Source of the DNA: Candidatus Omnitrophota bacterium
GTDB lineage: Bacteria > Omnitrophota > Gorgyraeia > JAFGHF01
Length of the DNA stretch: 64,000 nucleotides
Assembly (NCBI GenBank): GCA_020341815.1
Contig: CP070837.1
Coordinates: 780,954-844,953, forward strand
Reading direction: 5' to 3'
This document shows, in pieces, positions 30,543 through 59,952 of this stretch (the first letter of the stretch is position 1; the number at the start of each line of letters is the position of its first letter). Made by a program: the position numbers and the translations under genes. Below the pieces are notes generated by a model. That model saw nothing but the letters and a program-made list of their open reading frames with translations, was not told the origin of the DNA and ran no database searches.

Positions 30543-30567
30543 TTATTTTTCCCTTACAAAGGGAGCT

Positions 30568-30599: not shown

Positions 30600-30609
30600 C
30601 TGCTTTGCC
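30598..30609 (-). promoter_or_regulatory. ANTAR-target-like hexaloop hairpin GGC-AAAGCA-GCC overlapping the 5' arm of T1
   Basis: Minus-strand RNA GGCAAAGCAGCC: 3-bp stem, hexaloop with A1 and G4; shares 2 nt with the T1 5' arm. A second hexaloop hairpin AAC-AAUGAA-GUU lies 14 nt upstream (30624..30635). Confidence 0.35.
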
Positions 30610-30641
30610 TTATTAACTTTATTAACTTCATTGTTGCTTTA

Positions 30642-30669
30642 AGTATACCACAAAAAGATATTTTGTCAA
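30642..30669 (-). promoter_or_regulatory. Candidate promoter for the gltB-like leader transcript
   Basis: Minus strand reads TTGACA-N16-TGgTATACT (perfect -35, extended -10), between the GAF-ANTAR stop and terminator T1. Confidence 0.4.
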
Positions 30670-30688
30670 GACCTTTTTTAACTTTTTA

Positions 30689-36824: not shown

Positions 36825-36832
36825 AAAGATAA

Positions 36833-36855
36833 AGCCCGACTGTAAACGCCGGGCT
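36833..36855 (-). terminator. Candidate terminator hairpin downstream of csp
   Basis: Inverted repeat AGCCCG-N11-CGGGCT, 22 nt after the csp stop; flanking T-richness is stronger on the plus strand, so orientation is ambiguous. Confidence 0.3.
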
Positions 36856-36878
36856 CATTTGTCTTTTTTACTTTCAGA

Positions 36879-37079
36879 TTACAACTTTACTACTTTTACA
36901 GCCTGTTCGCCTTTGGGGCCCTGCTGGACCTCAAATTCGACTTCCTGCCCTTCGTCTAAAGTTTTGTATCCTTCACCCTCGATTGCACTATGATGCACGA
37001 ATACATCCTTACCTGACTCGGAAGTAATAAATCCATAACCTTTTTGGTTGCTGAACCACTTAACTTTTCCTTTTGGCAC
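36879..37079 (-). CDS. Cold-shock protein (CspA family)
   Basis: 66 aa; RNP motifs KGYGFI and VFVHHS; GTG start with RBS AAAGGGGG. Confidence 0.85.
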
Positions 37080-42497: not shown

Positions 42498-42521
42498 AAA
42501 GCTACCATTTCAGAGTTATTG

Positions 42522-43367
42522 TTATCTGGCTGCGGCGCTTATTCTTTTTATTATCTTTTTGGCCAGTTCTGTATTGGGAATAATGATCTCTTCGTTTTTA
42601 TCGGATACGAGCTTTGTGGAAACTGCATTAACGGCCTCTACCCTCCCCGAGAGCGAATCACATTCTATAATATCCCCTTTTTTTAGTTCGTGCGAGAGCA
42701 GCCTTCCGTTAATCACATTGGACATCACTTCTTTCCCGGATACTAAAAAAATGAGGAAGAATCCCAGCGGTATTACGCCGAAAATTACGATTAATGATTC
42801 GGACATAACAAACCGGGAAACATTCAAATGTTCTAAAATGATGATTACGACAAATCCCAATACCGCATAACGCGCAATCGTCCCTAATAAAGAATGAATC
42901 GGAATATTTGCCAGATGTGCGGTCCTATCCACAAATCTAAACGCAAACTTGCTGATAAATACACCCAAAGCGAGGATAATTATCGCCACAACGACATTCG
43001 GTATATATAAAACGATATTTTGAATAAGTTGTGAGGTAACCTTTAAATCCAGGGCATCCTGAGCCATAATCAGCGTATTCAAAAGAATTATCCAGTAAAA
43101 AATATTTCCGATAAGCGCAGAAGGAGATTTCTTCAATCCTCCTTTTTCTAAGAATTTCTTAAATCCTGTCTTTTCCGAAAGCACGTCAAACCCAAAAGCC
43201 CTCAAGAGCTTAGTGATGATTTTTCTGATTATTACAGCGCAAATCCAGCCAAACAGAATAAGCGAAAGCGAAAAGGCAATCCCCGGACCATACTGGCTAA
43301 TAAAATTGTTAACCTGGCTGAATGACTGAACGACAAGATTATTGAAAATTTCTACAAACCTGTTCAT
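42522..43367 (-). CDS. Mechanosensitive ion channel (MscS family)
   Basis: 281 aa; three N-terminal TM helices followed by an MscS-like beta domain. Confidence 0.75.
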   Translation of the reverse strand: MNRFVEIFNNLVVQSFSQVNNFISQYGPGIAFSLSLILFGWICAVIIRKIITKLLRAFGFDVLSEKTGFKKFLEKGGLKKSPSALIGNIFYWIILLNTLIMAQDALDLKVTSQLIQNIVLYIPNVVVAIIILALGVFISKFAFRFVDRTAHLANIPIHSLLGTIARYAVLGFVVIIILEHLNVSRFVMSESLIVIFGVIPLGFFLIFLVSGKEVMSNVINGRLLSHELKKGDIIECDSLSGRVEAVNAVSTKLVSDKNEEIIIPNTELAKKIIKRISAAAR

Positions 43368-43393
43368 TATTCGCCTCCTTTAATTGACATTTT

Positions 43394-44917
43394 TTAATCT
43401 TCTCTGAAGAAATCCTTTATTTTATCCCATGGTTTTTTTACGATTTTTTCACCCTTATCCAGGACTTTTCCGATTTGCTGTTCTGATCTTCCCGCCAGCT
43501 CATCTGTAACCCTATCGAGTTTTCTTAGTACTCCTTCGCCTTTTTTCAGCTCAACCATTAAGAAATCGGCCGTGCCGCCAATTCCTGCCTGGGGGTTTAA
43601 GTCATTCTTAAGCTGCATAATTACCGCAACCGGCGTTGCCGCAGCCGGCTCTTTAACCTTAAGGATGAAGAATATAGTCAATATCTGCAGGGCCGATGAA
43701 AGCAGGAAAATCAGCTGCAGGTTTGATATATTATAACTATAAAAATTAAAATTGATGCCCTCGGTCATTTTGGATATGCTGCCTCCGACAATAGGGGCAA
43801 CTGCGCCCACAAATCCGGTAATCGCCGCAAATAAAGCCAAATATACAGAACGGCCCTCTTTAGGAGAAAGCTTGATGAGAATATTAAACTGGGAAAGGCT
43901 GACTCCCGCCATAAATGCCCCTGAAAGCAGGTGCGCGGTCAATACAGGCAGGTAGTATTTTCCCGGCAAGGCCAAAATCCAGATAAAGGGAACAAGTATC
44001 AAAATCCACCCGGAAACGATAATTATGGGCTTATTGCCCATTTTATCCGAGATAGGCCCCCAGATCTTCATCATAAAAAGCGTAGCCAGTGTGGCAAATG
44101 TCCCGAATATGGTAATATTCGAAAAATCTATCTTTAGATGCTCGATCATAAATACGCCGTAAAATGGTGCGGCAATCTGGATGGCAAACATCCAGGCAGA
44201 AACAAACAGGATTAAGGTGAGGAAGTTTCTGTCTTTTAAGGGCTGGAAAAAGAGGGAAAAGTTCAAGCTCTTACCTTCTTGGCGAACGGTGCTTTCGGTC
44301 TCGGGTATGCGCCACAAAAACCATACCGCTGCAAGCCCTGAGGCCAGCCCAGCGATAAAAAGCAAAATAAATCCGAAAGCATTCTGCGCGGAAAAGCGCC
44401 CCTCCCACATAGTAATAAACTTTCCGCCCAAAAGCACAACCACCATGCCGCAGGCAGAGGCAATCATATTGCGCCTGCCAAAATAACTGCCTCTGATATT
44501 TTCGGGCACCAAATCGCTCATCCAGGCAAGCCAGGACACGCCGGATAAAGAAGCAAAAACGCTTGAGGCCGCTATAACCCCCACCAATACCCAGATACGA
44601 GAATCCGTCAAAGGGGCAAATATGGCAAAGGGAAGTAATATTACTAAAATCCAAAGGGTTCGGCTCACCAAGAGCGAGAAAAAACAAAGTACCTTTTTTC
44701 TGCCGGTTTTTTCGATTATGATGGAGCCGAAAATCTGCGCCAGATTGGCAAAGAAAGGAAGGGAAGCCAGGATGCCTACCTGCTGTGCTGAGGCATTTAA
44801 TATCTTTAAGGCAAATCCCATCAGGAATATACCACCGGCCAAAGAACCCATAACTGCCGAAAGGGCTCCATCGATAACAGAAAGCCTAAGCGCCCTATTG
44901 GTCTGGTCTATGTCCAA
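43394..44917 (-). CDS. MFS transporter with C-terminal soluble extension
   Basis: 507 aa; about 12 TM segments, MFS-like loop (GRKKV); about 80-aa hydrophilic C-terminal tail. Confidence 0.7.
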   Translation of the reverse strand: MDIDQTNRALRLSVIDGALSAVMGSLAGGIFLMGFALKILNASAQQVGILASLPFFANLAQIFGSIIIEKTGRKKVLCFFSLLVSRTLWILVILLPFAIFAPLTDSRIWVLVGVIAASSVFASLSGVSWLAWMSDLVPENIRGSYFGRRNMIASACGMVVVLLGGKFITMWEGRFSAQNAFGFILLFIAGLASGLAAVWFLWRIPETESTVRQEGKSLNFSLFFQPLKDRNFLTLILFVSAWMFAIQIAAPFYGVFMIEHLKIDFSNITIFGTFATLATLFMMKIWGPISDKMGNKPIIIVSGWILILVPFIWILALPGKYYLPVLTAHLLSGAFMAGVSLSQFNILIKLSPKEGRSVYLALFAAITGFVGAVAPIVGGSISKMTEGINFNFYSYNISNLQLIFLLSSALQILTIFFILKVKEPAAATPVAVIMQLKNDLNPQAGIGGTADFLMVELKKGEGVLRKLDRVTDELAGRSEQQIGKVLDKGEKIVKKPWDKIKDFFRED

Positions 44918-44924
44918 GAACCGC

Positions 44925-45674
44925 TTACTCCTGATTGTTCTTTTCTGCCTCCTCAGGCAAAAGCTGCAGTATCTTCCTTATGCTATCTAATTTGCCGAAG
45001 CAGATAAGCTTATCACCAGATAAAATTCTATTTTCTGCGGAGGGATTGGGGATCATTTCCTTTCCCCGATCTCTTTCTATGGCCAATACGGTAATATCCT
45101 GCCTGCGCAACTCGGCTTCTCTCAATGATTGATTGACTACAGGGCTTTCTCTTCCGATTTCAATGCTTGATATCCCGTAACCGCCTGTAGTAACCAAAAG
45201 TTCCTCAAAGGAAACCGGCTTCACGATTTCAGTCTTTATAATACGCTTTTTAAGAAATTGCGTTAACCTTCTCGTAAAACGCGAATGTGTAAAAATTCTA
45301 TAGAGAGAATAAATGGAAATCACCACAATTAATAAATTTATATACGGCAGGAGAAAAGACGGAAATACTAAATGTGTAAGGGGAATATTAATTTTTGGCA
45401 AATAAGACGGGCGCAGGGTATTGGCAAAAGTCGCGATTAAGGTTACCAACCCGGCATTGCCCAATACCATAAGCACTGAAGCGATGCGGCGCCTTTGGGG
45501 ATTGCCCGTTATCAGCTCTGCCTCTTTTGTGGTAAAGCCTGTGCCGCTGAAGCAGGATAGCGACTGGAATTTCGCCAGGGACCATTCAAGCCCTGTCAAT
45601 TGAAAAGCAATCGCCCCGATTCTCACCGCTATAAAAGCAATAATAATTGTAACAATAAAAAGCAATAGATTCAT
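44925..45674 (-). CDS. Membrane protein with C-terminal TrkA-C (RCK_C)-like domain; putative ion channel/transporter
   Basis: 249 aa; N-terminal TM region with pore-like SGTGFTT segment; C-terminal RCK_C-like domain. Confidence 0.5.
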   Translation of the reverse strand: MNLLLFIVTIIIAFIAVRIGAIAFQLTGLEWSLAKFQSLSCFSGTGFTTKEAELITGNPQRRRIASVLMVLGNAGLVTLIATFANTLRPSYLPKINIPLTHLVFPSFLLPYINLLIVVISIYSLYRIFTHSRFTRRLTQFLKKRIIKTEIVKPVSFEELLVTTGGYGISSIEIGRESPVVNQSLREAELRRQDITVLAIERDRGKEMIPNPSAENRILSGDKLICFGKLDSIRKILQLLPEEAEKNNQE

Positions 45675-45692
45675 AATTTTTTCTCCTAAGTT

Positions 45693-45890
45693 TTATTCCT
45701 TTGATTTAAAGTGGTATCCCCCGATCCATCCGATAATAATGCCCAAAAAGAGCGTGGCAAATATAATTATGGCCCTGCTTGTTTGAAATGACCATAAAAG
45801 AAATTTAATCTCTACCACCTCATAATTCTGCGCCGCAAAAATGACCAAAAATAGCATCAAAATAAGTACGACTACCCACTTCCAGCTCAT
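45693..45890 (-). CDS. Small membrane protein (LapA/DUF1049-like)
   Basis: 65 aa with two hydrophobic helices. Confidence 0.45.
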   Translation of the reverse strand: MSWKWVVVLILMLFLVIFAAQNYEVVEIKFLLWSFQTSRAIIIFATLFLGIIIGWIGGYHFKSKE

Positions 45891-45912
45891 TGCATACCTC
45901 CTTAAACTATGA

Positions 45913-46977
45913 TTACATCCACTTCTTCTTCCTGAAGTACGCTATCATATAAATGGCAATTGCGCCGATAATAAACCACACCGCAGGATATCCGAACCGC
46001 CACTGCAACTCCGGCATATACCTGAAGTTCATTCCGTAAATACCGACAATAAAGGTCAGAGGAATAAATATCGTGGCTATAACGGTCAAGACCTTCATCA
46101 CCTCGTTCATTCTGTTGCTCACGCTGGAAAGATAAATATCCAACATGCCTGAGACTACATCCCTGTATGTCTCTATGGTATCGATGACCTGAACAGTATG
46201 GTCATATACATCGCGCAGGAATATGCGGGTTGGTTTTTTAATTAGCTTTGATTCGGAGCGCTCCAGAACACTGACTACTTCGCGCAGGGGCCAAACGGAC
46301 TTCCTTAAGAAGATGATGTCTCCTTTTAAGCGATGAATTATTTGTAAGGTTTTGGGGATGGGGTTAGCTATTATCCTCTCTTCCATGTCCCCTATTTTTT
46401 CTCCAGATTTTTCCAGAATAAGAAAATAATTATCCACGACCGCATCCATCAAGGAATAGACAAGATAATCCGCCCCTGCCCCTCTGATTCTGCTTTTGGC
46501 GTTTCTGATGCGCTCTCTTACATGATCGAATACATCGCCCTCTTTCTCCTGGAATGAAATAACAAAGTTAGAGCCTAAAACCAAACTCACCTGCTCGGCG
46601 TTGATTTCCCCTGCTTTTTCGTCAAAATAAAGCATTTTTAAAACGATAAATATATAACTTTCGAAATCTTCCAGTTTTGGCCTTTGGCCGGTATTAACGA
46701 TATCTTCCAACATCAAAGGATGAAATCCAAAGTGCTTGCCTATTTTCTCTATAATCTCTATATTGTGGATGCCGTCAATATTTATCCATGTGACTGTTGA
46801 GGTATCTCTAAAAGAAAAGCATTCCTCCGGCGCCTTTATTTCTTTCTCCTGAACTTGCTTCTCGTCATAATCGATAACTGTTATCTTTACGCGTTCGGTC
46901 CTTTTCTCTCCCACATGCATCAATGTTCCCGGGGCAAGGCCTATGGTTTTGGAAATTCTTTTAATCAATCGGGGCAT
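45913..46977 (-). CDS. corA: Magnesium/cobalt transporter CorA
   Basis: 354 aa; C-terminal two TM helices with the GMN motif (YGMNF). Confidence 0.85.
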   Translation of the reverse strand: MPRLIKRISKTIGLAPGTLMHVGEKRTERVKITVIDYDEKQVQEKEIKAPEECFSFRDTSTVTWINIDGIHNIEIIEKIGKHFGFHPLMLEDIVNTGQRPKLEDFESYIFIVLKMLYFDEKAGEINAEQVSLVLGSNFVISFQEKEGDVFDHVRERIRNAKSRIRGAGADYLVYSLMDAVVDNYFLILEKSGEKIGDMEERIIANPIPKTLQIIHRLKGDIIFLRKSVWPLREVVSVLERSESKLIKKPTRIFLRDVYDHTVQVIDTIETYRDVVSGMLDIYLSSVSNRMNEVMKVLTVIATIFIPLTFIVGIYGMNFRYMPELQWRFGYPAVWFIIGAIAIYMIAYFRKKKWM

Positions 46978-47013
46978 GATAATCGCTCCCTTTATAAAAA
47001 GATTAAATATATA

Positions 47014-49338
47014 CTAATAATAATACTGCTTTTTGCCGATGGGCGTGCGCCTTATAAAACTAAACCATTTTCCCGGGCTTATAGTAGTCTTTCTGCCGAA
47101 TATATAGATTTCCAATATTTTTTTCTTTTGAGAAACATTTTTAATTTTAACGCAATCATTTGTTAATTTGAGATTCAAAATATTGCCCTGCCAAAAAAGA
47201 CAAAACTCTAATGTATGCCAACTCAAAGGCATCCTTGGAGTTATGGATAATTTATCTTTCATTATCTTAACGCCCCCGAATCCAAAGATTACTGTCTGCC
47301 AGGTGCCGCCTAGAGAAGCTGCATGCACTCCTTCATGGCTATTGCCAAAGATATTACTGATATCTATATGAAGCGCTACATTAAAAAGGCTGTAGGCCTT
47401 TGGCAAGTCATACGCCTCACAAGCATTAAGCGCGGATACAGAAGGGCTTAAAGAAGAATTATGAGTAACCTTATTAATATAAAACTTGTAGTTGGCAATC
47501 TTTGTTTTATCATTAAAGTCTTCGCCTAGTAAATATAGAAGCATCAATACATCCGGCTGTTTAATTAGCTGGGTCTTGCTAAAATCTTCCGAACCCCAAT
47601 CTTTGGGTATAATGGGCAAGCCATTTTCATCGAACTTATCAAAAATTACTTTTTTCAATTTGAAATACCCGTCAAATTGCTCAATGAGGCCGCTTTTAGC
47701 TATCCTGAGTTTCAACCTTTGAGAAATGCGCTTCCAATCTATTGCTTCTTTATTTTCCAATGCCAGTTTTTCTTTTAGGTGTTTGAATAAATGGGTATTT
47801 TTCTTAAGCTTATTGAATAAATTGTAAGCAGTAATCAAGTTCCACCTTGCTATCATATTAGTATAGGCATTATTCTTTACATTTATATGGAACTCATCCG
47901 GGCCGATAATATTGGGGATTTCATATTTTGCGCGTTTCTTATTAAATTTTACCCTTGAAGCCCAGAAGCGCGCGGTCTCAAAAAGAACCTCATACCCGTA
48001 ATCTTCCATAAACTTCTCATCTTTTGTAACCACAAAGTATTTATAAAAAGCATAAGCCACATCAGCGGTAATATGGTGCTCCATCTGCTGGGTATGAATT
48101 GGGATAATCTTCCCGTTAATATCGGTTGACCATTCGGGAGTTTCCTCTTCGCCATTTCTTGCCGACTCCCAGGCAAACTTTGCCCCTTTAAAGCCTTCCT
48201 CTTGCGCCAGGGCGCGAGATTTATTCAGCCTTCTATAGCGGTACATGAGCATATTCTTGGCAATATCGGGGAAATTAAACAGGAAGAACGGAAAAACGAA
48301 TATCTCTGCATCCCAAAAGACATGCCCGCGATAACCTTCCCCGCTCAAAGTACGCGCAGCGATACTGGAGAAACCGTTATCACGCCATCCGCAAATAAGC
48401 ATGTGGTATATATTAAAGCGCAGGTTCTGCTGGATATTGGCGGTTCCCTTGACCAATACATCGGCCCTCTTCCAGGCTCTCTCCCACAGGCGCATATGTT
48501 CTGCAAGAAGCCTTGTGAAGTCCTCATGAAAAACTTTTCTAAACGCTTTCCTGGTTTGTGTCTTAATATTTGCAATATCCTGTTTATACGGAAAGTGCTT
48601 AATAAAGAATAATTTTGTAAATATAATAGGGTGATTTTTCTTGAGATGGATTTTAAATACATTGTCTTTGGCAAAAACTTTTTTTCCTTCGACCTCATAA
48701 TAAAATCCGCTCCGGAAGACTACAATGTGTTTTTTCTGAAGCGTCTCTATCGCCAGATATCCGGCATTATCCTCCTGCCCAAGCTCTCTTACCCGAAAAT
48801 GCTTTTTATATCCTTCGCTTAAGCGGGGTATATTGGAAACCGAAGTATCAATTCCTGTGTTAATATCAGCCGAACAGTCTTCGTCAAGCGAAGTCAGGAT
48901 AATCTGCATTACCCCGATATTTTTATCTTTCATAGACATAAATCTTAGAGACTGGTAATCAAATTGTCTTTTTTTTCTATCTCTATAAAGAGTGCGTTGT
49001 ACTAAAATTGCTTTTTTCATATTAAGGGTTCTGTTATGGCTGGCGACATCCATTGCGATTGCATCAAGCTTGTGCCCTTCGATAGTAAACTTAAAATTTA
49101 TTGGGTTAGGCAGATTGACCAGCTCATCGACCTGCGAGCCCATCTTATCATATAGCCCGGCAATATAAAGGCCCGGTATTGCTCCCACAGGCATATCGGC
49201 CAAAATACCCCGCGCCCCCAGATATCCATTACCCAGAGCAAACTGGCTTTCCCGTTTATTCTGAAGCTCTTTTGCCCATTCCGTTTCCTTTATCAGCCAG
49301 CGCTCATCCTGAATATAATCAGCATAGAAATCTTTCAT
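47014..49338 (-). CDS. Glycoside hydrolase family 65 disaccharide phosphorylase (maltose/kojibiose/trehalose phosphorylase-like)
   Basis: 774 aa; GH65-like N-terminal beta-sandwich, (alpha/alpha)6 barrel and C-terminal domain; substrate not assignable. Confidence 0.8.
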   Translation of the reverse strand: MKDFYADYIQDERWLIKETEWAKELQNKRESQFALGNGYLGARGILADMPVGAIPGLYIAGLYDKMGSQVDELVNLPNPINFKFTIEGHKLDAIAMDVASHNRTLNMKKAILVQRTLYRDRKKRQFDYQSLRFMSMKDKNIGVMQIILTSLDEDCSADINTGIDTSVSNIPRLSEGYKKHFRVRELGQEDNAGYLAIETLQKKHIVVFRSGFYYEVEGKKVFAKDNVFKIHLKKNHPIIFTKLFFIKHFPYKQDIANIKTQTRKAFRKVFHEDFTRLLAEHMRLWERAWKRADVLVKGTANIQQNLRFNIYHMLICGWRDNGFSSIAARTLSGEGYRGHVFWDAEIFVFPFFLFNFPDIAKNMLMYRYRRLNKSRALAQEEGFKGAKFAWESARNGEEETPEWSTDINGKIIPIHTQQMEHHITADVAYAFYKYFVVTKDEKFMEDYGYEVLFETARFWASRVKFNKKRAKYEIPNIIGPDEFHINVKNNAYTNMIARWNLITAYNLFNKLKKNTHLFKHLKEKLALENKEAIDWKRISQRLKLRIAKSGLIEQFDGYFKLKKVIFDKFDENGLPIIPKDWGSEDFSKTQLIKQPDVLMLLYLLGEDFNDKTKIANYKFYINKVTHNSSLSPSVSALNACEAYDLPKAYSLFNVALHIDISNIFGNSHEGVHAASLGGTWQTVIFGFGGVKIMKDKLSITPRMPLSWHTLEFCLFWQGNILNLKLTNDCVKIKNVSQKKKILEIYIFGRKTTISPGKWFSFIRRTPIGKKQYYY

Positions 49339-49349
49339 TATCTTTTCCT

Positions 49350-50411
49350 CTATCTTTGTAAGGACTTTTTATATATATTCAAATAATTCCTGGCCATGCT
49401 TTCTCTTGAAAAGTTCTTCTCGACATACTTTCGGCAAGTTTCCGGTTTGATTTTATCCAGTTTTCCTTCTTTGATGACGCTTACCATATCGTCTTCGGTA
49501 TCCACGCAATACCCTGTCTTGCCATCGATAATAACTTCGGGTGCCGCCCCCCGGCGCAAAGCAATAACCGGTGTTCCGCAGGCCAGCGACTCCAGCATTA
49601 CAAGACCGAACGGCTCTTCCCACTGGCTGGTAAAAAGGGTGCATCTTGCGCGTCTTAAAAGGTCAAATATCATGTGGCGAGGAAGCTCTTTCTGAAACTG
49701 GAAAAATAGGTGCTGAGGGTATTTCTCTATCCAGGGTAAAATCTCCTTTCTGAAGAACTCTTTTTCGAATTGCTCGGTCATCTTTACTGCCATAATAAGA
49801 TTCACGCCCGCTTTGCTTGCTACCCTGATAGCAAGATCCAAGCCTTTTTCCCAATTTACTCTTCCCACAAAAAGAAAAAAATCCTCTTTTTTCTTTTTCC
49901 ATTCAATAGGTTTTGCATTAATGCAGTTGTATACGGTATCTGCAAATCGAATATTTTTATTCAACATAAGATATAATTCCTTTTGCCTTTTTGAAATAGA
50001 GACAAAGTTGTTTTTAGGATTTTTTGACAGTTCCTCGCATCGAACAACCGAGGGTTCGTTTGCCGGCCCGTGAATGGTATAGATAACAGGGATATCTGCC
50101 AGGGGAATGTCCATTGTATGGCAGTGAATGATATCTACGCCTTCATATCCTGCCCGGGAAAAGGCATATTTAGCAATGAGCTCCGTCACGAAAGCCTTGG
50201 TTCTATCCTCAGAATCCAATCCAAAATAATATTCACTCTCAATATAAGGCATAAGGCGACAGGAAACCTTAGAGTCTTTAGCGGCAAAAAGTATCACCTC
50301 CTGACCCAGCTCGGTTAAACCTTCAACAAGATTGTAAATAACAAGTTCGGTTCCCCCATATTTAGGCGGCGGCACAGGAATCCAGGGCGGCGCTATAACT
50401 GCTATTTTCAT
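49350..50411 (-). CDS. Glycosyltransferase family 4 (paralog a)
   Basis: Track ORF from TTG 50426; ATG at 50411 gives MKIAVIAPPWIPVPPPKYGG; C-terminal GT-B EX7E-type region. Confidence 0.8.
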   Translation of the reverse strand: MKIAVIAPPWIPVPPPKYGGTELVIYNLVEGLTELGQEVILFAAKDSKVSCRLMPYIESEYYFGLDSEDRTKAFVTELIAKYAFSRAGYEGVDIIHCHTMDIPLADIPVIYTIHGPANEPSVVRCEELSKNPKNNFVSISKRQKELYLMLNKNIRFADTVYNCINAKPIEWKKKKEDFFLFVGRVNWEKGLDLAIRVASKAGVNLIMAVKMTEQFEKEFFRKEILPWIEKYPQHLFFQFQKELPRHMIFDLLRRARCTLFTSQWEEPFGLVMLESLACGTPVIALRRGAAPEVIIDGKTGYCVDTEDDMVSVIKEGKLDKIKPETCRKYVEKNFSRESMARNYLNIYKKSLQR

Positions 50412-50426
50412 TACAATCTCCCGCAA

Positions 50427-51485
50427 CTATTTTCTAGAAATAATATCCTTATAAAGGTCGAGGTATTTCTTGGCCATACGCTTCCTTGAGAAGTTCTCTT
50501 CAACATACTTGCGGCAATTTTCCGGCTTAATTGAATCTATCTTTTTTATTGCTTCCAGCATTTCATCCTCGGTATTGACAACAAAGCCTGTTTCTCTGTC
50601 CTTAATTATCTCGGGAGCGGAGCCTTTGCGGAAGGCAATAACCGGCGTGCCGCAGGCCATAGATTCAAGCATAACAATACCAAAGGGCTGCTCCCATTTG
50701 TCGCCCGTCAAAGTACACTTAGCGCGTCTTAGTAAATCCAGGAGACTCTCTCTGGGAATTTCATGATGAAGCTGGAAAAGAAGGTCTTTCGGATGCTTTG
50801 CTATTAACGGCTCTATTTCTTTCCTCATATATTCTTCCTCTTCTTCTTCGATTGTCTTAACAGCCATAATCAAACCGATCTTTGCGCGGGCAGCAATCCT
50901 GATTATCGTATCAAATCCCTTCTCCCAGCTGGCCCTGCCTATGCAAAGAAAAAAATCCTCCTTTTTATCCGACCATTTAATAGCTTTAACATTAATACTA
51001 GGATGGACGAAATCGGCAAATTTAATATTTTGATTTAACGTAGTATAAAGCTCTTTTTGCCTGTTTGATATAGCGACTAAATATTCTCTTTCGCCCTTTA
51101 ATAATTCGAGGCACTGCATCAAGGCCCCTTCTGTAGCTGTGCTATAGATGGTATGCACTACGGGCGTACTAACAGTAGATTTAAACATTGTATGGTCATG
51201 GATAATGTCAACCTTTTCGTATCCTGCCCGGGAAAAGGCGTATTTAAGAGCAAGCTCCCTCACAAAAGATTTTTCATCCGCAGGTGAATCCATGCCAAAA
51301 TGTATTGGGCTTTTAGTATAGGGATAGAATGGACAGGAAACTTTTGAATCCTTGTGCCCAAAGAAAATCACCTCTTCGCCCAATTCCCTCAGTCCTTCCA
51401 CGAGATTCCATACTACTATTTCTATGCCGCCATACTTAGGCGGCGGCACAGGAATCCAAGGCGGCGCTACAACTGCTATTTTCAT
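50427..51485 (-). CDS. Glycosyltransferase family 4 (paralog b)
   Basis: 352 aa; N-terminus MKIAVVAPPWIPVPPPKYGG nearly identical to paralog a; abuts paralog a with no gap. Confidence 0.8.
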   Translation of the reverse strand: MKIAVVAPPWIPVPPPKYGGIEIVVWNLVEGLRELGEEVIFFGHKDSKVSCPFYPYTKSPIHFGMDSPADEKSFVRELALKYAFSRAGYEKVDIIHDHTMFKSTVSTPVVHTIYSTATEGALMQCLELLKGEREYLVAISNRQKELYTTLNQNIKFADFVHPSINVKAIKWSDKKEDFFLCIGRASWEKGFDTIIRIAARAKIGLIMAVKTIEEEEEEYMRKEIEPLIAKHPKDLLFQLHHEIPRESLLDLLRRAKCTLTGDKWEQPFGIVMLESMACGTPVIAFRKGSAPEIIKDRETGFVVNTEDEMLEAIKKIDSIKPENCRKYVEENFSRKRMAKKYLDLYKDIISRK

Positions 51486-51499
51486 GCCTACGTTTCCTC

Positions 51500-54226
51500 T
51501 TAGTAATTCTCACCTGAACAGACAGAGAGTATCTCTTTTCTGGTTATGCAGCCAACTAAAGTCTTTCCTTTTACAACGGGAAGAAGCTGAAAAGAGCGTT
51601 CCGTAAAAAGACGAAGCGCTATCTCCACATGGTCGGATAAGTTGACATATTCAACGGATTTATTCATGATATCCTTGGCTTTTAGCTGGGCAAGGTCCTC
51701 TCTTTCGGTGACGCCAACGATATCTTTCTTCGAAATAATCCCGCAAAGCTGGTTATTAGCTTTGACAACAGGAACGCTACTTGCGTTCTTCTCCTTCAAT
51801 ACATGGCTGACTCTCTTTATAGGATCATTTTCATTGACGAATATTAGATTCTCTTCTCTAATTATATCTTTAAGGCGCTTTGCTGAAACCATAACAGCCT
51901 CCTTTCGCCCGATTTTTACTTTAATGGTTTTGAAAGGTTCTATAGAATAATTTTTCTCGAATATCCCAATCTGAATATTAGCATTTTTGGCCTGATTAGG
52001 ATAATAAGTCACTTCCACCTCTTTATTATTGAGAGCCAGTCTTAATAAGCTTTTTCCCCGGAATATCTTAAACTGCATAAGCTTCCAATGGGCGGGCAAG
52101 CGGGGATTAATTGTCAGCTTATTATCCTCAAAGCTTATGCCGGCAAACCCAAATATGGCTGCCTGCCAGATGCCGCCTGCATTTGCCATATGCATACCGC
52201 CATCGCTGTTATTGTGTAAATTTTTCAAGTCAATCTGGCTTGAAAAAAGGAAAAATAAATAGGCCCTTAAGCAATCGCCGAACTCGCTGGCTAAAAGGGC
52301 ATGGATTGAGGGGCTTAGAGAGGACTGATGAAGAGTCCGTTTTATATAATACTGGTAATTTTTTATTTTCTGCTCCCAGTCGAAACGCTGGGGCAGAAGA
52401 TAAAATAAAAATAAAACATCGGCCTGCTTAATAAATTGTGTCTTATCAAAGTCTTTATAAGACAAATGCTGCGGCGCTTCCGGCATAAAAAAATCGCTGT
52501 AACTTCTTATAGATATCTGCTTTTTTTTAAAATAACCTTTAAATTGCTCAATAATTCCCTCTTTGGGCTTGGGGATATAAATGTCTTTGGCAATATCTCT
52601 CCAGCCGTCAACTTCCCTTTCATGTAATCTTAAATTGTGCTCCAATCTATAAAAGGCGTCCGGGTATTTCTCTTTAATTTCATAATAAAGGGAACGGGCA
52701 TATTCCATATTCCAGGAAGCCAGGATATTGGTATAAAAATCATTTTTCACGCGCGTATGAAATTCATCCGGACCAATTACATCCAAAATCTCATATTTTT
52801 TCATTTTTTCATTGAAAGTTACGCAACTTGCCCAAAATCGGGCAGTGGAAAAAACAATTTCTGCACCATGATGGATAATGAAATCGAAATCATCTGTTGC
52901 CCGATAATAATTAAAAACGGCATAGGCAATATCTGCTGAGATATGGTGTTCGTAATCCATGGTCTCTACTTTCATAATAGTGCCGTCTGTGTCCTTGGCA
53001 TAGCGCAGCGTTACCTCATCGCCAATTGATGCAGATTGCCAGGGAAATAAAGCGCCTTTATAATTTCTTTTTTTGGCATTGGCTATTGCCTGACTTAAGC
53101 GCTTATATCGGTACAAAAGCATATTCTTCGCCATAGGCGGGTCCGTATAAAGATAAAAGGGGAGCATAAAAATCTCGGAATCCCAGAAGATATGACCCCT
53201 ATAGCCCTGGCCGCTGAGGGCGCGCGCGCCGATGCTCATAGGAAAATTACCTTTGTAAGCGGCAATAATAAGGTGATATATGTTAAGGCGCAAGGCCTTA
53301 TCGCTTAACTTGTCTCCTTTGATTGTAACGTTTGCCTGCTCCCATCTTCTTTTCCATTCCTCGACATGTTCCTTCAGGCTTTCTTGGAGGCCTCGGGAAC
53401 TAGTCTCCTTGAGTAAACGCAAGCTCTTCTCTTTAAGTTCTCCGACATGGTGTTGTAAAGATGTGTTTATTGTAAATACTTTTGTAAATGTGATAGTCTC
53501 GCCCTTCTGTAGTTCAAAATTATGGGCTCTATCATGAAGCAGCATCTGATTTGAGTTTTTTTCCACAAAAAGCCTGTCGGCATATGCAACCCAGATCTTT
53601 GAAGTTATGGTCCTATAGGCATAATAGTTAATTTCATTTTTTGTATCGGCATCCATTAAACGCATATGCCTTCTTGTTCCATAAACCAGGCCGCCGTAAT
53701 TAGTAGCTGAATCATCCAGAAAATCCAGTGCGGTAACTTCGGCTTTGCCGTTTAAGAGGGTTAAGGAGACTTTCATCCAGCCGATATGAGGGTTTTTCAT
53801 GTTAAAAAAACGCAAAGATTGATACAGAAACTTTCTGTTTTTTCCGTCTTTAAAAAGCGTCTTGCGCACCAGAAGACCTTTATGCATATCCAGATAACGC
53901 ACATGCTTAAGAAATCCCATGAAATGCATGTCAAGCTTTTCTCCCTCGACCGCAAAAATAAAATGGATGGGATTGGGAAGATTGACCAATTCTTCTACCT
54001 GCGCACCGGATTTATCGTAAATGCCGGTAATAAATGTGCCAGGCATTGCTCTTTCAGGATACTCCTCAAGGACACCTCTTGAGCCGATAAATCCATTTCC
54101 CAGGGTAAATATTGACTCCTGGGTATGCTGTTCATCAAGCCCGAAGGAAGTCTCTTTTATAAGCCATTCGGGCGAAGAAAGACTAATTCCAAAAAAATCT
54201 TTCGTATTAAAATATTCTTTTTTCAT
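51500..54226 (-). CDS. GH65-family phosphorylase fused to a C-terminal CBS-domain pair
   Basis: 908 aa; N-terminal about 770 aa collinear with the GH65 ORF at 47014..49338 (shared ELVNLPNPI and other blocks); C-terminal about 130 aa has two CBS-like repeats. Confidence 0.8.
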   Translation of the reverse strand: MKKEYFNTKDFFGISLSSPEWLIKETSFGLDEQHTQESIFTLGNGFIGSRGVLEEYPERAMPGTFITGIYDKSGAQVEELVNLPNPIHFIFAVEGEKLDMHFMGFLKHVRYLDMHKGLLVRKTLFKDGKNRKFLYQSLRFFNMKNPHIGWMKVSLTLLNGKAEVTALDFLDDSATNYGGLVYGTRRHMRLMDADTKNEINYYAYRTITSKIWVAYADRLFVEKNSNQMLLHDRAHNFELQKGETITFTKVFTINTSLQHHVGELKEKSLRLLKETSSRGLQESLKEHVEEWKRRWEQANVTIKGDKLSDKALRLNIYHLIIAAYKGNFPMSIGARALSGQGYRGHIFWDSEIFMLPFYLYTDPPMAKNMLLYRYKRLSQAIANAKKRNYKGALFPWQSASIGDEVTLRYAKDTDGTIMKVETMDYEHHISADIAYAVFNYYRATDDFDFIIHHGAEIVFSTARFWASCVTFNEKMKKYEILDVIGPDEFHTRVKNDFYTNILASWNMEYARSLYYEIKEKYPDAFYRLEHNLRLHEREVDGWRDIAKDIYIPKPKEGIIEQFKGYFKKKQISIRSYSDFFMPEAPQHLSYKDFDKTQFIKQADVLFLFYLLPQRFDWEQKIKNYQYYIKRTLHQSSLSPSIHALLASEFGDCLRAYLFFLFSSQIDLKNLHNNSDGGMHMANAGGIWQAAIFGFAGISFEDNKLTINPRLPAHWKLMQFKIFRGKSLLRLALNNKEVEVTYYPNQAKNANIQIGIFEKNYSIEPFKTIKVKIGRKEAVMVSAKRLKDIIREENLIFVNENDPIKRVSHVLKEKNASSVPVVKANNQLCGIISKKDIVGVTEREDLAQLKAKDIMNKSVEYVNLSDHVEIALRLFTERSFQLLPVVKGKTLVGCITRKEILSVCSGENY

Positions 54227-54234
54227 AAGGAAGG

Positions 54235-54882
54235 TTATTTAAATAACTTCTCAAGTGTCATATGATCTATTTTTGATAGGTCATCTACTACAATAGTTGC
54301 TTTTTTGAGTCTTTCGGCAGTGCCATAACGGTCAATGCCTACGCAAAGCATTTTCCCATTTATTGCGGCCTCAACGCCCAATACGGCATCTTCAAAAACG
54401 ACACATTCCTGATAGCCACATCCGATTCTGTCTGCGGCAAGCTGAAAAATCTGCGGGTCCGGCTTTCCCCTCTTGAGGTCATTGCCGTCCACTATGGCAT
54501 CCGCCAGCTTGATAATTCCTGTCTTTTGCAGGATTTTCTTGCAATTACGGCTTGAGGAAGCAATGGCAATCTTCTTATTGTGCCTTTTCAGCTCTTTGAT
54601 TAAATCCAGAGAGGAATTATATATGTCAATCTCTCCTTTTTCCAATAGCTCAAGGAAATATCTTTGCTTTTTATCGCCTGCTTTTTTTATCTCTGCATCG
54701 CTAAGGCCGGTCAAGATTGCCTTGGTGCCGTCATATCTGGGGATGCCGTCAACCTTGGCTTTATAGTCATCGAAGCTAAACTCTATTCCGTAATCGGAAA
54801 AAAGCTTCTTCCAGGCCTTAAAATGCAAGGGCACAGTATTTACTATTACCCCATCTAAATCAAATATTGCCGCTTTAAACAT
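54235..54882 (-). CDS. pgmB: Beta-phosphoglucomutase (HAD family)
   Basis: 215 aa; HAD motif I AIFDLDGVIV and a beta-PGM-like cap; RBS GAGG. Confidence 0.8.
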   Translation of the reverse strand: MFKAAIFDLDGVIVNTVPLHFKAWKKLFSDYGIEFSFDDYKAKVDGIPRYDGTKAILTGLSDAEIKKAGDKKQRYFLELLEKGEIDIYNSSLDLIKELKRHNKKIAIASSSRNCKKILQKTGIIKLADAIVDGNDLKRGKPDPQIFQLAADRIGCGYQECVVFEDAVLGVEAAINGKMLCVGIDRYGTAERLKKATIVVDDLSKIDHMTLEKLFK

Positions 54883-54893
54883 TATTCTGCCTC

Positions 54894-54927
54894 AATAAAA
54901 AACCCTCGAACTTTTTAGATTCGAGGG
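54894..54927 (-). terminator. Terminator/attenuator hairpin directly 5' of the pgmB RBS
   Basis: Minus-strand RNA CCCUCGAA-UCUAAAAAG-UUCGAGGG (perfect 8-bp stem) followed by UUUUUUAUU, which runs into the pgmB SD. Confidence 0.45.
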
Positions 54928-54938
54928 GGCCGGAACTA

Positions 54939-54959
54939 ATATCCAAAAAGTTCGGATAT
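54939..54959 (-). promoter_or_regulatory. Upstream hairpin whose loop is complementary to the terminator loop/3' arm (candidate antiterminator element)
   Basis: ATATCC-N9-GGATAT hairpin; its 9-nt loop (GAACUUUUU on the RNA) is the exact reverse complement of AAAAAGUUC in the downstream terminator hairpin. Confidence 0.35.
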
Positions 54960-55018
54960 TGTATACTGTTTTAATCTTACCAAATACAATTTATAATTGC
55001 AAGCAAAACATGCGAAAT

Positions 55019-55056
55019 AAGAAGGGCTGGCCGTGCGCATATAGCCAACCCTTCTT
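55019..55056 (-). terminator. Candidate terminator hairpin downstream of the small membrane protein gene
   Basis: Inverted repeat aagaagggctgg-N14-ccaacccttctt (11/12 complementary), about 34 nt after the stop at 55090; weak U-tract. Confidence 0.3.
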
Positions 55057-55089
55057 ATTTGAGTCTTACAGAACCTGAATTGCTTGGTG

Positions 55090-55284
55090 CTATCCCAGCA
55101 TTTTTTTGGCATTCATTGCGATAACAATTGCCGATAGGCCAACCAGCGTATAAACAACCCTGGAAATTACAGACATTACACCGAATATTGCAGCTACAAG
55201 GTCAAAGCTGAAAAGGCCCACCAAACCCCAATTTAAACCGCCCACCACAAGAAGAATAAGCGCTATCAAGTTTATAGCCTTCAT
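55090..55284 (-). CDS. Small membrane protein (DUF378-like)
   Basis: 64 aa with two hydrophobic helices; strong RBS AAAGGAGGG and candidate promoter upstream. Confidence 0.5.
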   Translation of the reverse strand: MKAINLIALILLVVGGLNWGLVGLFSFDLVAAIFGVMSVISRVVYTLVGLSAIVIAMNAKKMLG

Positions 55285-55339
55285 TACTCACCCTCCTTTC
55301 TTTAAAATACCCTTTAAAACAAAGAATCCTCCCTGTTTG

Positions 55340-55367
55340 TATTGTAGCACCAACCTAATTTAAGTCA
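55340..55367 (-). promoter_or_regulatory. Candidate promoter for the small membrane protein gene
   Basis: Minus strand reads TTGACT-N16-TGcTACAAT (extended -10). Confidence 0.4.
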
Positions 55368-55385
55368 AGCTAAAATGAATATTAA

Positions 55386-57346
<1,961 letters not shown>

Positions 57347-57350
<4 letters not shown>

Positions 57351-58306
57351 CTTCTTCTTCTGCCGAAAGGCATAAAGGGGCTGCTGGTTGTGTTATTATT
57401 TCTTGAAGGTAAATATCTTTGTGTCTTAACTATTATTTTATCCTTCAGGCTGAGCCCTGAGACAATCTCTGCATTCTTTTCATCATAAATGCCGAGTTTT
57501 ACCTTCCGCCTTAAGGGTTCCTCGCCCGGGCCCTGACTTACGGATACAAAGGCCCCCTCTTTGGTCTGCTCAATGGCCTCAAGAGGCACGATTAAGACCT
57601 CTTGTTTCTCCACCTCTACGATATCCACGTTTGCGCTCATACCTGAACGAAAGACTTCGGGTATTTCTTTCGGAAGGATATCCACTTCATAAATAGTAAC
57701 ATTATTGACAACCTCGGATTCATAAGATATGTGATCGACTTTGGCATCCACCTTTATTTGAGGATAGGCATCTAAACTCACCCGTGCCGCCTGGCCGATT
57801 TTTACTCTGCCTATATCGGTCTCATCCACCTGGGCCTTGACAATAAGGCGGTCGGATAATACAACTATGACATCGCCTGAGGCAACTGTCTGGCCCGGCT
57901 CAACTGCTCTTACGATTACTTCTGCATCAATAGGGGCTATTAAAGGAGTAGATTTGTAGGCCTCCTGCCAATACTTCAAGCTTTCTTCGCCCTGAGCGCG
58001 GGCTGCGTCTAAAAGGGCGGCCCTTTCGGTTGAGCTCATCAAGGCCAATGTCTGGCCGGCCTTTACCTTTTCCCCTTCCGAGACCATGATTTCTTCGATG
58101 CGCCCGTTAATCGGCGGCTTGATTTCCAGGCGGTTCTGCGGCTCTACTATGCCGGTAGTGGATATGAGGCTCTGGATACTGCCGATTTCAGGGGTTATTT
58201 CTCTGGCAGTCTGCAAAGGATATTTAGTGTCTTTCTTTTTCATTATTAAGACTGCCGCAGCTATTAAAATTACTAAAATAAAACAGATCTTTTTACTTCT
58301 TAACAT
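57347..58306 (-). CDS. macA: Periplasmic adaptor subunit (MacA/HlyD family)
   Basis: 319 aa; N-terminal TM anchor, biotinyl/lipoyl-like and beta-barrel adaptor sequence; 4-nt overlap with macB. Confidence 0.8.
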
Positions 58307-59549
58307 AATCCAGGGTCCCTCCTTTTGCCTGAACCCATTCGGCTTCTTTGACCAGGGTATCGGCTTTGGTATCCAAAAGGGTCTTTTTGGCGCTGGCTAA
58401 ATTATCTTCGATAATCGACCAGTCATCAAAAGAAATAAGGCCGATGGCATATTGCGCCTGGGCAATCTTGGCCCGCTCCTCGGCCGCCTCTAAAAACTTC
58501 TCTTCCACTTTTACCTTATCTATTGCATCCTGCCAGCCTTTCCAGGTATCCTCCATGGTGAAAATAACGCTATCCTTTCCGCTCCTTTCATCTGCCTGGG
58601 CCTGATTAAAGGCGGCCTTGGCCTTAGAGACCTGGGCAATGCGGTTTCCGCCTTCAAATACAGGAAGGGACAGGCTCACGCCCGCCGACCATACATCATT
58701 ATGCGGCGGCCAATGCGAATCGCTCCTTCCGGCTGAGGCGTTTGCGTACACCTCCGGAAGAAACTCCGCCTCGGCGGATTTTAAATCAAATCGAGCGGAT
58801 TCTTTTCTACTCATCAAATCCAGTAAGAAAGGATTGCTTTGGGCCAGATAATCAAAGTCCGGTCTTTGCCGGTTGGGATATTCAACCTTGAAGTCCCCTT
58901 TTGCTTTAATAGGCGTCAATTTGCTGCGGCCCAATTCATTAGTCAGCTGCCTCTGGGCCAAATCGACATTTCTCCTGGCCTGAATTACTTCGAATTCGGC
59001 CTGCCCAAGATTTGCTTCGGCATTTAATAGCGACCCCCTATGTTCTCTTCCCGCCTCATAACGCAATCTTACTAATTCCAGGTTCTGTTTTCGCCGCTGG
59101 GCTGTGCTTTCTGTAATTCCTAAAAGCTCCTGGGCTTTTAAAAGCTCAACAAACGCCTCTTTCAAGCTCAGCCTTACATTGGATGAAGTTACTTCATAAT
59201 TATATCGCGCCGATTTTACATCTTCATCGGCAGAAGATATATCGTAAGAGGTCTTGAAACCGTCAAATAATAATTGCTCTGCGCTCACGCTATAGGCATA
59301 TGTATCGGTGGTGGCACCGCTGGCGGCCTTTGCAGTTGCCCCGCTCAATGCGCTATCTATCTGCGGCAGGGCGTCACTTTTGGCAATGACTTTATCGGCT
59401 ACGGCCTGATTCAGTTGTTCCCGCGCCGATATTAAATCGGGATGGTTTCGTCTGGCCTCTTTAAGGCAATCTTCCCAGGTAAGCTCCTCTTCCGCTGCGG
59501 CATTAATCGAGAAGATAAATAAAAATATAAGGATAAATATAATACGCAT
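58293..59549 (-). CDS. tolC: TolC-family outer-membrane efflux protein
   Basis: 418 aa; signal peptide and two-repeat coiled-coil/beta-barrel organisation typical of outer membrane factors. Confidence 0.8.
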   Translation of the reverse strand: MRIIFILIFLFIFSINAAAEEELTWEDCLKEARRNHPDLISAREQLNQAVADKVIAKSDALPQIDSALSGATAKAASGATTDTYAYSVSAEQLLFDGFKTSYDISSADEDVKSARYNYEVTSSNVRLSLKEAFVELLKAQELLGITESTAQRRKQNLELVRLRYEAGREHRGSLLNAEANLGQAEFEVIQARRNVDLAQRQLTNELGRSKLTPIKAKGDFKVEYPNRQRPDFDYLAQSNPFLLDLMSRKESARFDLKSAEAEFLPEVYANASAGRSDSHWPPHNDVWSAGVSLSLPVFEGGNRIAQVSKAKAAFNQAQADERSGKDSVIFTMEDTWKGWQDAIDKVKVEEKFLEAAEERAKIAQAQYAIGLISFDDWSIIEDNLASAKKTLLDTKADTLVKEAEWVQAKGGTLDYVKK

Positions 59550-59554
59550 CTTAC

Positions 59555-59794
59555 TTAATTTTTATTTGAGATTTCTGCTTTTAGCGTAGATATGTGCTTT
59601 TCAAAGTGAGACAAGAATTGGCTAAAGTCATCAGCCGGGAAAAAGCCGACCATCTTTTTGCCGGGATGCCCTGAGGTCACAATGAGCTTGTCACCCGCTT
59701 TAATGGTAAGCATTTTCCTCACCTCTTTAGGGATGACCACCTGTCCCCTTGCCCCCACTCTCACCAAGCCGTAAAACTTAGGAAACTTATGCAT
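59555..59794 (-). CDS. AbrB/MazE/SpoVT-family DNA-binding protein
   Basis: 79 aa; swapped-hairpin signature VRVGARGQVVIPKEVRKMLTIKAGDKL; first gene of the tolC-macA-macB operon. Confidence 0.7.
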   Translation of the reverse strand: MHKFPKFYGLVRVGARGQVVIPKEVRKMLTIKAGDKLIVTSGHPGKKMVGFFPADDFSQFLSHFEKHISTLKAEISNKN

Positions 59795-59811
59795 TTGTCC
59801 TCCCGTTTTTA

Positions 59812-59845
59812 GTATGATTTGTATGATAAATCATATTTATCATAC
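59812..59845. promoter_or_regulatory. Four 9-bp-phased heptamer repeats (GTATGAT x2, then ATCATAT/ATCATAC); candidate operator
   Basis: GTATGAT at 59812..59818 and 59821..59827, inverted copies at 59830..59836 and 59839..59845; lies between the candidate -10 and the AbrB RBS. Confidence 0.4.
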
Positions 59846-59847
59846 AT

Positions 59848-59876
59848 AATATATCCTCTCTTTCGCCGCTTGTCAA
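59848..59876 (-). promoter_or_regulatory. Candidate promoter of the AbrB-tolC-macAB operon
   Basis: Minus strand reads TTGACA-N17-TATATT. Confidence 0.45.
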
Positions 59877-59888
59877 TATAAATTGCAG

Positions 59889-59923
59889 GATAAAATAAAA
59901 ACCCTGTACCGTACGGTACAGGG
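59889..59923 (-). terminator. Rho-independent terminator downstream of parA (perfect 22-bp palindrome plus U-tract)
   Basis: CCCTGTACCGTACGGTACAGGG is an exact palindrome; on the minus strand it is followed by TTTTTATTTTAT, about 30 nt after the parA stop. Confidence 0.6.
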
Positions 59924-59952
59924 TTTGGTTCAACATGGCTCCCCGGGGCTTC

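Follow-up and report, generated by a model that had tools for sequence, protein, structure and literature searches.

Results

The pgmB operon and its leader

A stretch of 64,000 nucleotides (nt) from a metagenome-assembled genome of Candidatus Omnitrophota, referred to below as the window, carries an operon that begins with pgmB, whose product (NCBI UCB56464.1) belongs to the beta-phosphoglucomutase family. The subject of this study is the leader of about 85 nt in front of pgmB, which an earlier reading made from the letters alone (the original prediction) had singled out as attenuator-like. All genes of the pgmB neighborhood lie on the minus strand, and the coordinates of the leader elements, the genes and the cassettes compared below are collected in Table 1. 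The N-terminus of PgmB, MFKAAIFDLDG, agrees with the family consensus, and the original annotation of a pgmB-GH65-GT4 operon was confirmed by a Pfam scan that covered essentially all open reading frames (ORFs) of the window (~60).

Table 1. Features of the pgmB leader, its surroundings and other loci of the window discussed in the text. L162 is the contig of a close relative described below.
Feature	Coordinates	Strand	Basis	Remarks
Long hairpin terminator of the upstream DUF378 gene	55061..55014	minus	fold	
Promoter-like site P1	55002..54974	minus	read from sequence	TTGCAA 55002..54997, 17-nt spacer, extended -10 TGgTAAGAT 54982..54974
Hairpin A	54960..54938	minus	fold	AAUAUCC 54960..54954, loop GAACUUUUU, GGAUAUU 54944..54938
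Putative antiterminator, 5′ strand	54954..54941	minus		CGAACUUUUUGGAU; covers loop and 3′ arm of A
Intrinsic terminator T	54927..54894	minus	consensus scan and fold	
Putative antiterminator, 3′ strand	54920..54907	minus		AUCUAAAAAGUUCG; top of T's 5′ arm, T loop and first 5 nt of T's 3′ arm
Shine-Dalgarno sequence and pgmB start	54893..54880	minus	sequence	GAGG 54893..54890; ATG 54882..54880
pgmB, beta-phosphoglucomutase-family hydrolase	54882..54235	minus	Pfam	first gene of the operon; intergenic minus-strand promoter-pattern match upstream
GH65 fused to two CBS domains	54226..51500	minus	Pfam	
GT4 glycosyltransferase, first	51485..50427	minus	Pfam	
GT4 glycosyltransferase, second	50426..49350	minus	Pfam	
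Second GH65	49338..47014	minus	Pfam	
CorA	46977..45913	minus	Pfam	
DUF378 gene	55284..55090	minus	Pfam	64 amino acids; intergenic minus-strand promoter-pattern match upstream
MacB / HlyD / TolC efflux genes	59549..55386	minus		
GAF-ANTAR protein gene	30689..31393	minus	Pfam	between glutamate dehydrogenase gene and glutamate-synthase-domain gene
Glutamate-synthase-domain gene	28879..30471			intergenic minus-strand promoter-pattern match upstream
Carbamoyl-phosphate synthase large-subunit gene	25544..28774			intergenic minus-strand promoter-pattern match upstream
Cassette: MazE-like, TolC, HlyD, MacB	59855..55437			window only, versus L162
Cassette: DUF378 gene with own promoter and terminator	55379..55011			window only, versus L162
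Cassette: GH65-CBS and two GT4	54226..49349			window only, versus L162
Cassette: CorA	47011..45695			window only, versus L162
Cassette: MFS and MscS-like	44881..42401			window only, versus L162

Two hairpins and an alternative helix

The element nearest to pgmB, T, has the attributes of an intrinsic terminator, namely a G+C-rich stem, a short loop and an adjoining U-tract, and was classed as a terminator by the consensus scan. Its stem is formed by CCCTCGAA (54927..54920) and TTCGAGGG (54910..54903) and comprises 8 base pairs (bp), or 9 bp when the closing U.G is counted, with 5 G-C among the 9 pairs and a loop of 7-9 nt. As RNA, T consists of CCCUCGAAU, CUAAAAA and GUUCGAGGG (54927..54903; -12.4 kcal/mol), and its tail is made up of six T residues (54902..54897) followed by ATT, i.e. 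UUUUUUAUU. This U-tract runs straight into the Shine-Dalgarno sequence, and the ATG lies 7 nt further on. The original prediction had placed a hairpin with a U-tract at exactly these positions, and scan and fold both describe it as a canonical terminator; the ~12 nt that it gave between the terminator and the Shine-Dalgarno sequence is in fact the distance to the ATG.

Hairpin A is separated from T by a linker that measures 10-11 nt, instead of the ~15 nt first estimated. The core of A is ATATCC (54959..54954) paired with GGATAT (54944..54939) around the loop GAACTTTTT, and folding with ViennaRNA gave a stem of 10 bp with a CUU triloop at -7.3 kcal/mol. No other copy of A was found within the window. 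In effect, A repeats the apical part of T in inverted and nearly exact form, and the loops of the two hairpins are complementary (CUUUUU versus AAAAAG). The original prediction had noted a 9-mer in A that is the exact complement of a segment in T; the pairing exists and is longer, with 10 perfect bp, or 14 bp when one G.U is included (54954..54941 : 54920..54907). Because the strands of this 14-bp helix are taken from both hairpins, it can coexist with neither A nor T. The mutually exclusive terminator and antiterminator pairings proposed originally are thus present, and more extensive than first seen.

The frequency of such complementarity was estimated with dinucleotide shuffles. A perfect complement of at least 10 nt occurred in 1.6% of the shuffles of the 131-nt leader, and the duplex energy between the upstream region and T (-18.1 kcal/mol) was reached by 0.6% or 0.13% of the shuffles when 40 nt or 86 nt of upstream sequence were used, respectively. 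Among 20 terminator-like hairpins in the window, the complementarity of T was the most extreme (z = -3.77). When the 73-nt transcript was folded, the minimum-free-energy structure consisted of A and T (-22.0 kcal/mol), with pair probabilities above 0.97 in the T stem and of 0.53 for its closing U.G. For the nascent RNA of 60-62 nt, the antiterminator was the minimum-free-energy fold, with a probability of 0.95-0.99, a stage at which GUUCG has already been made and the last GAGGG of T has not.

Promoter and upstream boundary

The terminator of the DUF378 gene insulates the pgmB leader from transcription upstream, and TTGCAA of P1 starts twelve bases past it. Transcription from P1 is predicted to start near 54967; hairpin A begins ~7 nt past this position, and the predicted unit from P1 to T measures 70-73 nt. 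When the window was searched with the extended -10 pattern TTGNNN-N13-15-TGNTANNNT, 9 matches were obtained, 5 of them intergenic, compared with an intergenic share of the window of 6.8% (p = 1.5e-4). The four intergenic matches on the minus strand each lie 48-171 nt upstream of a gene start (genes marked in Table 1). Because the pattern is enriched at intergenic sites upstream of genes, P1 is, judged by its sequence, a credible promoter.

Two other promoter positions were considered and rejected. A second promoter within hairpin A (TACAAT, 54963..54958), which would give transcripts without the 5′ arm of A, has poor -35 spacing and is lost in L162 by a 4-nt indel. For a sigma-54 or other promoter downstream of T there is neither room nor motif; as the original prediction had it, no promoter is possible there, because the U-tract abuts the Shine-Dalgarno sequence. 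Since P1 is credible, the upstream gene has its own terminator and no promoter has room after T, T probably lies inside the pgmB transcription unit, ~40-70 nt into the leader, which agrees with its original assignment to the pgmB 5′ leader.

Conservation in a close relative

The 90% protein cluster of the window PgmB has one further member, P0121, encoded on the Logan contig L162. The two PgmB sequences are identical at 95% of the amino acids, 93.4% of the nucleotides and 86% of the third codon positions. In the leader, the promoter block that contains P1 (38/38 nt), hairpin A (24/24) and the T hairpin (26/26) are all unchanged, and 88 unchanged sites are expected with p = 2e-6 to 9e-5 under a neutral identity of 0.86-0.90. 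The linkers have diverged: the start-site linker is AAAACAGUAUAC in the window versus GAGGCGAUGGUUUAAG in L162, the A-T linker is GUUCCGGC versus ACACCGGU, and UUUUUUA after T in the window corresponds to AUUCUUA with a 13-nt insertion in L162. The non-identical alignment columns (38/38) all fall outside the 46 hairpin columns that the original prediction had defined beforehand (hypergeometric p = 4e-8). Because they are unchanged in L162 while the linkers diverged, the hairpins and the complementary segments appear to be under constraint, and for this the sequence evidence is solid.

Some further features of the L162 leader were observed. The segment UAAGAAU (3905..3911), just 5′ of A and overlapping it, is perfectly complementary to AUUCUUA (3968..3974) just 3′ of T (shuffle p = 0.004), and 3 of the 7 pairs are found at the same flank positions in the window. 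This flank pairing would extend the alternative helix to 23 bp or close a three-way junction. A possible pairing between the A-T linker and the Shine-Dalgarno region was also considered and was discarded for inconsistency between the window and L162. The one open reading frame of the leader, which starts with TTG (54946..54875, minus strand), runs from the 3′ arm of A through T to a TAA overlapping the pgmB start, 23 codons in all; it is open in L162 as well (25 codons, ending in TAATG), and four of its six substitutions there are at third positions (p ~0.1; by eye).

Although the gene cassettes on either side are not the same in the window and L162, the leader module is found in front of pgmB in both. 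Positions 42401..59855 of the window and 3704..8648 of L162 are colinear at ~90-93% nucleotide identity, with whole cassettes present in the window only (Table 1). Directly upstream of the module, L162 has a 59-nt remnant of the macB 3′ end, with no terminator between them. A 12-bp palindromic hairpin (AAACCCTGTACCGTACGGTACAGGGTTT) resembling a bidirectional terminator is 100% conserved between window 59899..59926 and L162 3719..3746, the upstream genes differing.

More distant pgmB loci

From genome and metagenome collections, 160 homologous pgmB loci were obtained, and the upstream context was scored in 145 of them. Outside L162, the proteins closest to the window PgmB in the protein search were at most 76% identical. 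A search with the N-terminal fragment of PgmB, aimed at partial genes at contig ends, gave L163 (PgmB identity 82%), whose upstream region is different, and no further close relative. The upstream context of the 160 loci is not syntenic with the window. In 77/145 loci pgmB lies within 30 nt of the preceding ORF, typically a gene for a Na+/H+ exchanger, an MscS channel or MgtC; in L004, L005, L007, L011, L014 and L016 such a gene stands upstream of pgmB and either overlaps it or is separated from it by up to 15 nt. Neither nhmmer nor a covariance model built from the window and L162 leaders found a further copy in the window or the fetched loci. A repeat of the REP/BIME type was rejected as an explanation for the hairpins, with only two inverted copies in the 64 kb, both at this locus, and none in 161 other loci.

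A different element was observed in L082 (~650..778), where a long hairpin of ~100 nt (GGGGACACAATACTTAATTA ... TAATTAAGTATTGTGTCCCC) lies between a tRNA-like sequence (recognized by eye) and pgmB. It is found also in L087, L088, L089, L090 and L092; the PgmB proteins of the carriers are 72-76% identical to that of the window, and some loci have extra tandem partial copies (caattctggggacacaatactt). No Rfam family corresponds to this element, the sole match being a spurious microRNA; a mobile element, what is left of an att site, or a leader RNA of another kind are the possibilities for its nature.

Known RNA families and regulators in the window

As stated in the original prediction, no known riboswitch is recognizable in the pgmB leader: the Rfam scan gave no family at threshold. 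The two best matches at permissive thresholds were rejected, namely a PyrR binding site (RF00515; 18.1 bits against a gathering score of 54, E = 8.4) and a BglG/LicT ribonucleic antiterminator (RAT) leader (RF03530 bglG-cis-reg; 16.6 bits against 80, E = 4). CAT_RBD and PRD domains are absent from the scanned ORFs, and a literature search for antitermination at pgmB had no relevant result.

The targets of ANTAR proteins are hairpins with hexaloops that have A at position 1 and G at position 4 (A1/G4), the second of which overlaps the terminator stem (PMC8934654). The window encodes a GAF-ANTAR protein, whose gene is followed by a 217-nt leader (30688..30472) upstream of the glutamate-synthase-domain gene. 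It contains a promoter of the form TTGACA-16-TGgTATACT and, in tandem, two intrinsic terminators (30601..30578 and 30537..30496). Small hairpins with a 3-bp stem and an A1/G4 hexaloop overlap the 5′ arms of the first terminator (GGC-AAAGCA-GCC, 30609..30598) and of the second (GGC-AAGGAA-GCC, 30542..30531), and a third such hairpin, AAC-AAUGAA-GUU (30635..30624), lies upstream of both. No Rfam family matched the leader, which by its layout looks like a classical ANTAR target in Omnitrophota. The original statement that no cognate RNA-binding antiterminator was recognized in the window is therefore wrong in view of the GAF-ANTAR gene; the pgmB leader itself, however, lacks the ANTAR hexaloop.

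Other regulators encoded in the window are Rex-like, Rrf2, MazE/AbrB-like and CspA-type (36879..37079) proteins, for none of which a connection with the leader is evident. Beyond CorA, genes for a TrkA_C protein, an MFS transporter and an MscS-like channel follow on the minus strand. Together with the CBS fusion and the neighbors TrkA_C, CorA and MscS-like, the Na+/H+ exchanger, MscS channel and MgtC genes that precede pgmB in more distant relatives suggest a link of the GH65/PgmB cluster with ion or osmotic homeostasis.

Discussion

A candidate attenuator

We propose, with a probability of roughly 0.4, that the 5′ leader of the pgmB operon is a lineage-specific, cis-acting transcription attenuator that terminates by default and uses three mutually exclusive helices (A, the 14-bp helix and T). 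The evidence that the structural elements are real and constrained is solid, and that for a regulated switch is moderate; we infer that the alternative helix forms, that T terminates in vivo and that the choice between them is regulated. The general layout of an attenuator is found, with a terminator between a promoter-like site and the first ORF and a helix incompatible with that terminator. Leader-terminator control is probably used elsewhere in this genome, in the ANTAR-adjoining leader with its two tandem terminators, which supports the proposal.

According to this model, transcription would start at the conserved extended -10 promoter P1, and hairpin A would fold first. About 10 nt later T would fold and stop most transcripts just before the Shine-Dalgarno sequence, so that the default state is OFF. 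Read-through would need the 14-bp helix, in which the loop and 3′ arm of A pair with the loop and the upper 3′ arm of T. Because A sequesters the 5′ strand of this helix, it would act as an anti-antiterminator, and a factor or condition that melts or blocks the 5′ arm of A, or that stabilizes the long helix, would turn the operon ON. The complementary loops (CUUUUU / AAAAAG) may be the point where strand exchange starts.

A number of observations weigh against this proposal. When the antiterminator was enforced, the folding energy was -15.0 kcal/mol, so that the terminator state is better by ~7 kcal/mol and the equilibrium probability of the antiterminator is ~0; moreover, the antiterminator takes the 3′ arm of T and not its 5′ arm, which is kinetically unfavorable. 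These energetics therefore indicate termination by default, with read-through needing help or the outcome being kinetic. The complementarity statistic is also weakened by a control hairpin (42783..42762, minus strand) within the MscS-like coding sequence 42522..43367, for which z = -3.66; because this nearly equals the score of T, the statistic is suggestive and not conclusive. A terminator-like hairpin at 36856..36832 (minus strand), directly after the CspA-type gene and 7 nt before the start of the DUF456 gene at 36824, means that plain leaky terminators before genes do occur in the window.

The comparative data give further points of the same kind. In L162 the U-tract of T is degraded to AUUCUUAUUUU, with the site still classed as terminator-like. 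Between the window and L162 the paired regions are all identical, giving 0 compensatory pairs and no covariation for any helix, and loop conservation by itself is weak in this comparison (p = 0.07-0.15). Among the more distant loci, none of the 42 with an upstream gap of at least 100 nt has a terminator-like hairpin there, and no leader terminator was found in ~145 of them. The original prediction had named loss of the complementary segments in homologous loci as one outcome that would refute it; this outcome was not observed, the segments being kept in L162, the sole close relative, and on the other side of that comparison stand the missing covariation and the absence of the leader from the ~145 distant loci.

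The remaining points concern the sensor. At permissive E-values, Rfam gave nothing near any gathering score for the window and L162 leaders, and Pfam found no sugar-responsive RNA-binding protein among the ~60 ORFs. Two candidates for sensing in the pgmB leader were tried and rejected. One was ANTAR binding, for which neither the window leader nor that of L162 has an A1/G4 hexaloop hairpin (stem of at least 3 bp). The other was a leader peptide from TTG 54946, which has neither a Shine-Dalgarno sequence nor an ATG (p ~0.1) and is probably untranslated. With Rfam, the ANTAR hexaloop and the leader peptide examined, no sensing element was recognized in the pgmB leader.

Alternative explanations

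The main alternative, a plausible and serious one that we rate somewhat below attenuation, is that T is an unregulated, leaky terminator valve that lowers the amount of pgmB-operon transcript, A being a 5′-protecting hairpin and the A-T complementarity a by-product without a switching role. In the ancestor, T would also have ended the macAB-tolC operon, and the macB remnant directly upstream of the module in L162, with no terminator between, is what is expected if T is the ancestral macB terminator. The second terminator 7 nt before a gene start in the window (36856..36832), a thermodynamic population of ~100% A+T, the lack of both sensor and covariation, and the similar z-score reached by chance in the control hairpin all fit a simple valve. 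It is harder to reconcile with a strong canonical terminator placed ~70 nt past the only plausible promoter of the operon, which would be a wasteful constitutive design, with a 14-bp complementarity that is rare in shuffles, and with loops that show no change at all between the window and L162, where the divergence of the linkers far exceeds that of neutral sites.

We consider it improbable that the segment from P1 to T is an independent, trans-acting small RNA of ~70 nt, with pgmB expressed by read-through. The order of promoter, hairpin, linker and terminator with conserved hairpins is typical of bacterial small RNAs, and the predicted unit of 70-73 nt would suit one; the single-stranded linker, however, where the seed would usually lie, is less conserved than any other part, and neither a second copy nor an obvious target was found in the window. 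Since pgmB has no promoter of its own, the element must in any case act in cis.

Still less credence is given to DNA-level operators that repress P1, with T incidental. The palindromes in question are AATATCC-N9-GGATATT and, in the promoter spacer, CAATT-ATA-AATTG; the former is hairpin A, a perfect 7-bp inverted repeat at ~+8 to +30 of the predicted start that is perfectly conserved, and from identical sequences one cannot tell whether the constraint acts on DNA or on RNA. On the other hand, three overlapping inverted repeats, a strand-specific U-tract and G.U pairs that work on the transcribed strand only point to RNA, the motif occurs nowhere else in the window, and no DNA-binding regulator of the sugar type is encoded nearby in the window or in L162.

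Ranked lower again is the idea that the leader is a self-contained RNA switch of ~70 nt that operates without a protein partner and senses ionic strength, K+, Mg2+, temperature or transcription rate, with strand exchange begun at the loops. Its target would presumably be a GH65 / beta-phosphoglucomutase / GT4 operon that acts on compatible solutes, situated among genes for ion homeostasis (MscS-like, TrkA_C, CorA). Least probable of all is a compact ligand- or ion-sensing RNA in which A and T coexist through kissing loops and the flank helix closes in L162, since the six complementary bases between the 9-nt loops and the flank pairing that could close a three-way junction there are set against a flank helix that is absent from the window, a junction linker that is not conserved, complementarity that extends well into both stems where kissing does not need it, and the lack of an Rfam riboswitch match.

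Significance

To our knowledge, gene regulation is almost unexplored in Omnitrophota, a phylum without cultured members. If the leader is indeed an attenuator, it would be a candidate cis-regulatory RNA of this phylum without an Rfam match, controlling an operon whose neighbors (MscS-type channel, TrkA_C, CorA and the CBS-fused GH65) suggest osmolyte turnover. Attenuation by terminator and antiterminator is well known as a kind of control, of which the pgmB leader would be a member without family assignment. It is limited to two closely related genomes, and on the present data it counts as a lead that can be tested and not as a discovery; being small and built from three clearly defined helices, it is easily tested in vitro.

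Comparison with known leaders

The ANTAR leaders (EutV/NasR/AmiR; PMC8934654) share with the proposed pgmB attenuator the principle of control at a leader terminator, and a GAF-ANTAR protein is encoded in the window. They differ in their hexaloop hairpins, which the pgmB leader has neither in the window nor in L162.

In the trp leader, regulation follows from the alternative pairings 1:2, 2:3 and 3:4. Attenuators of this three-helix type have in common with the pgmB leader a hairpin upstream, an intrinsic terminator directly before the first gene, and an alternative helix built from one strand of that hairpin and part of the terminator, the pairings being mutually exclusive. Unlike them, the pgmB leader encodes no translatable peptide with regulatory codons and is only ~85 nt long, and its putative antiterminator would occupy the terminator at the loop and 3′ arm instead of the 5′ arm.

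With regard to BglG/SacY/LicT antitermination, the difference lies in the components: the RF03530 score is far below gathering, no CAT/PRD protein is found in the scanned ORFs, and the leader does not resemble the RAT consensus. The likeness lies in the logic, with the leader of a sugar operon that would be OFF by default and a weaker alternative structure that must be stabilized over a more stable terminator.

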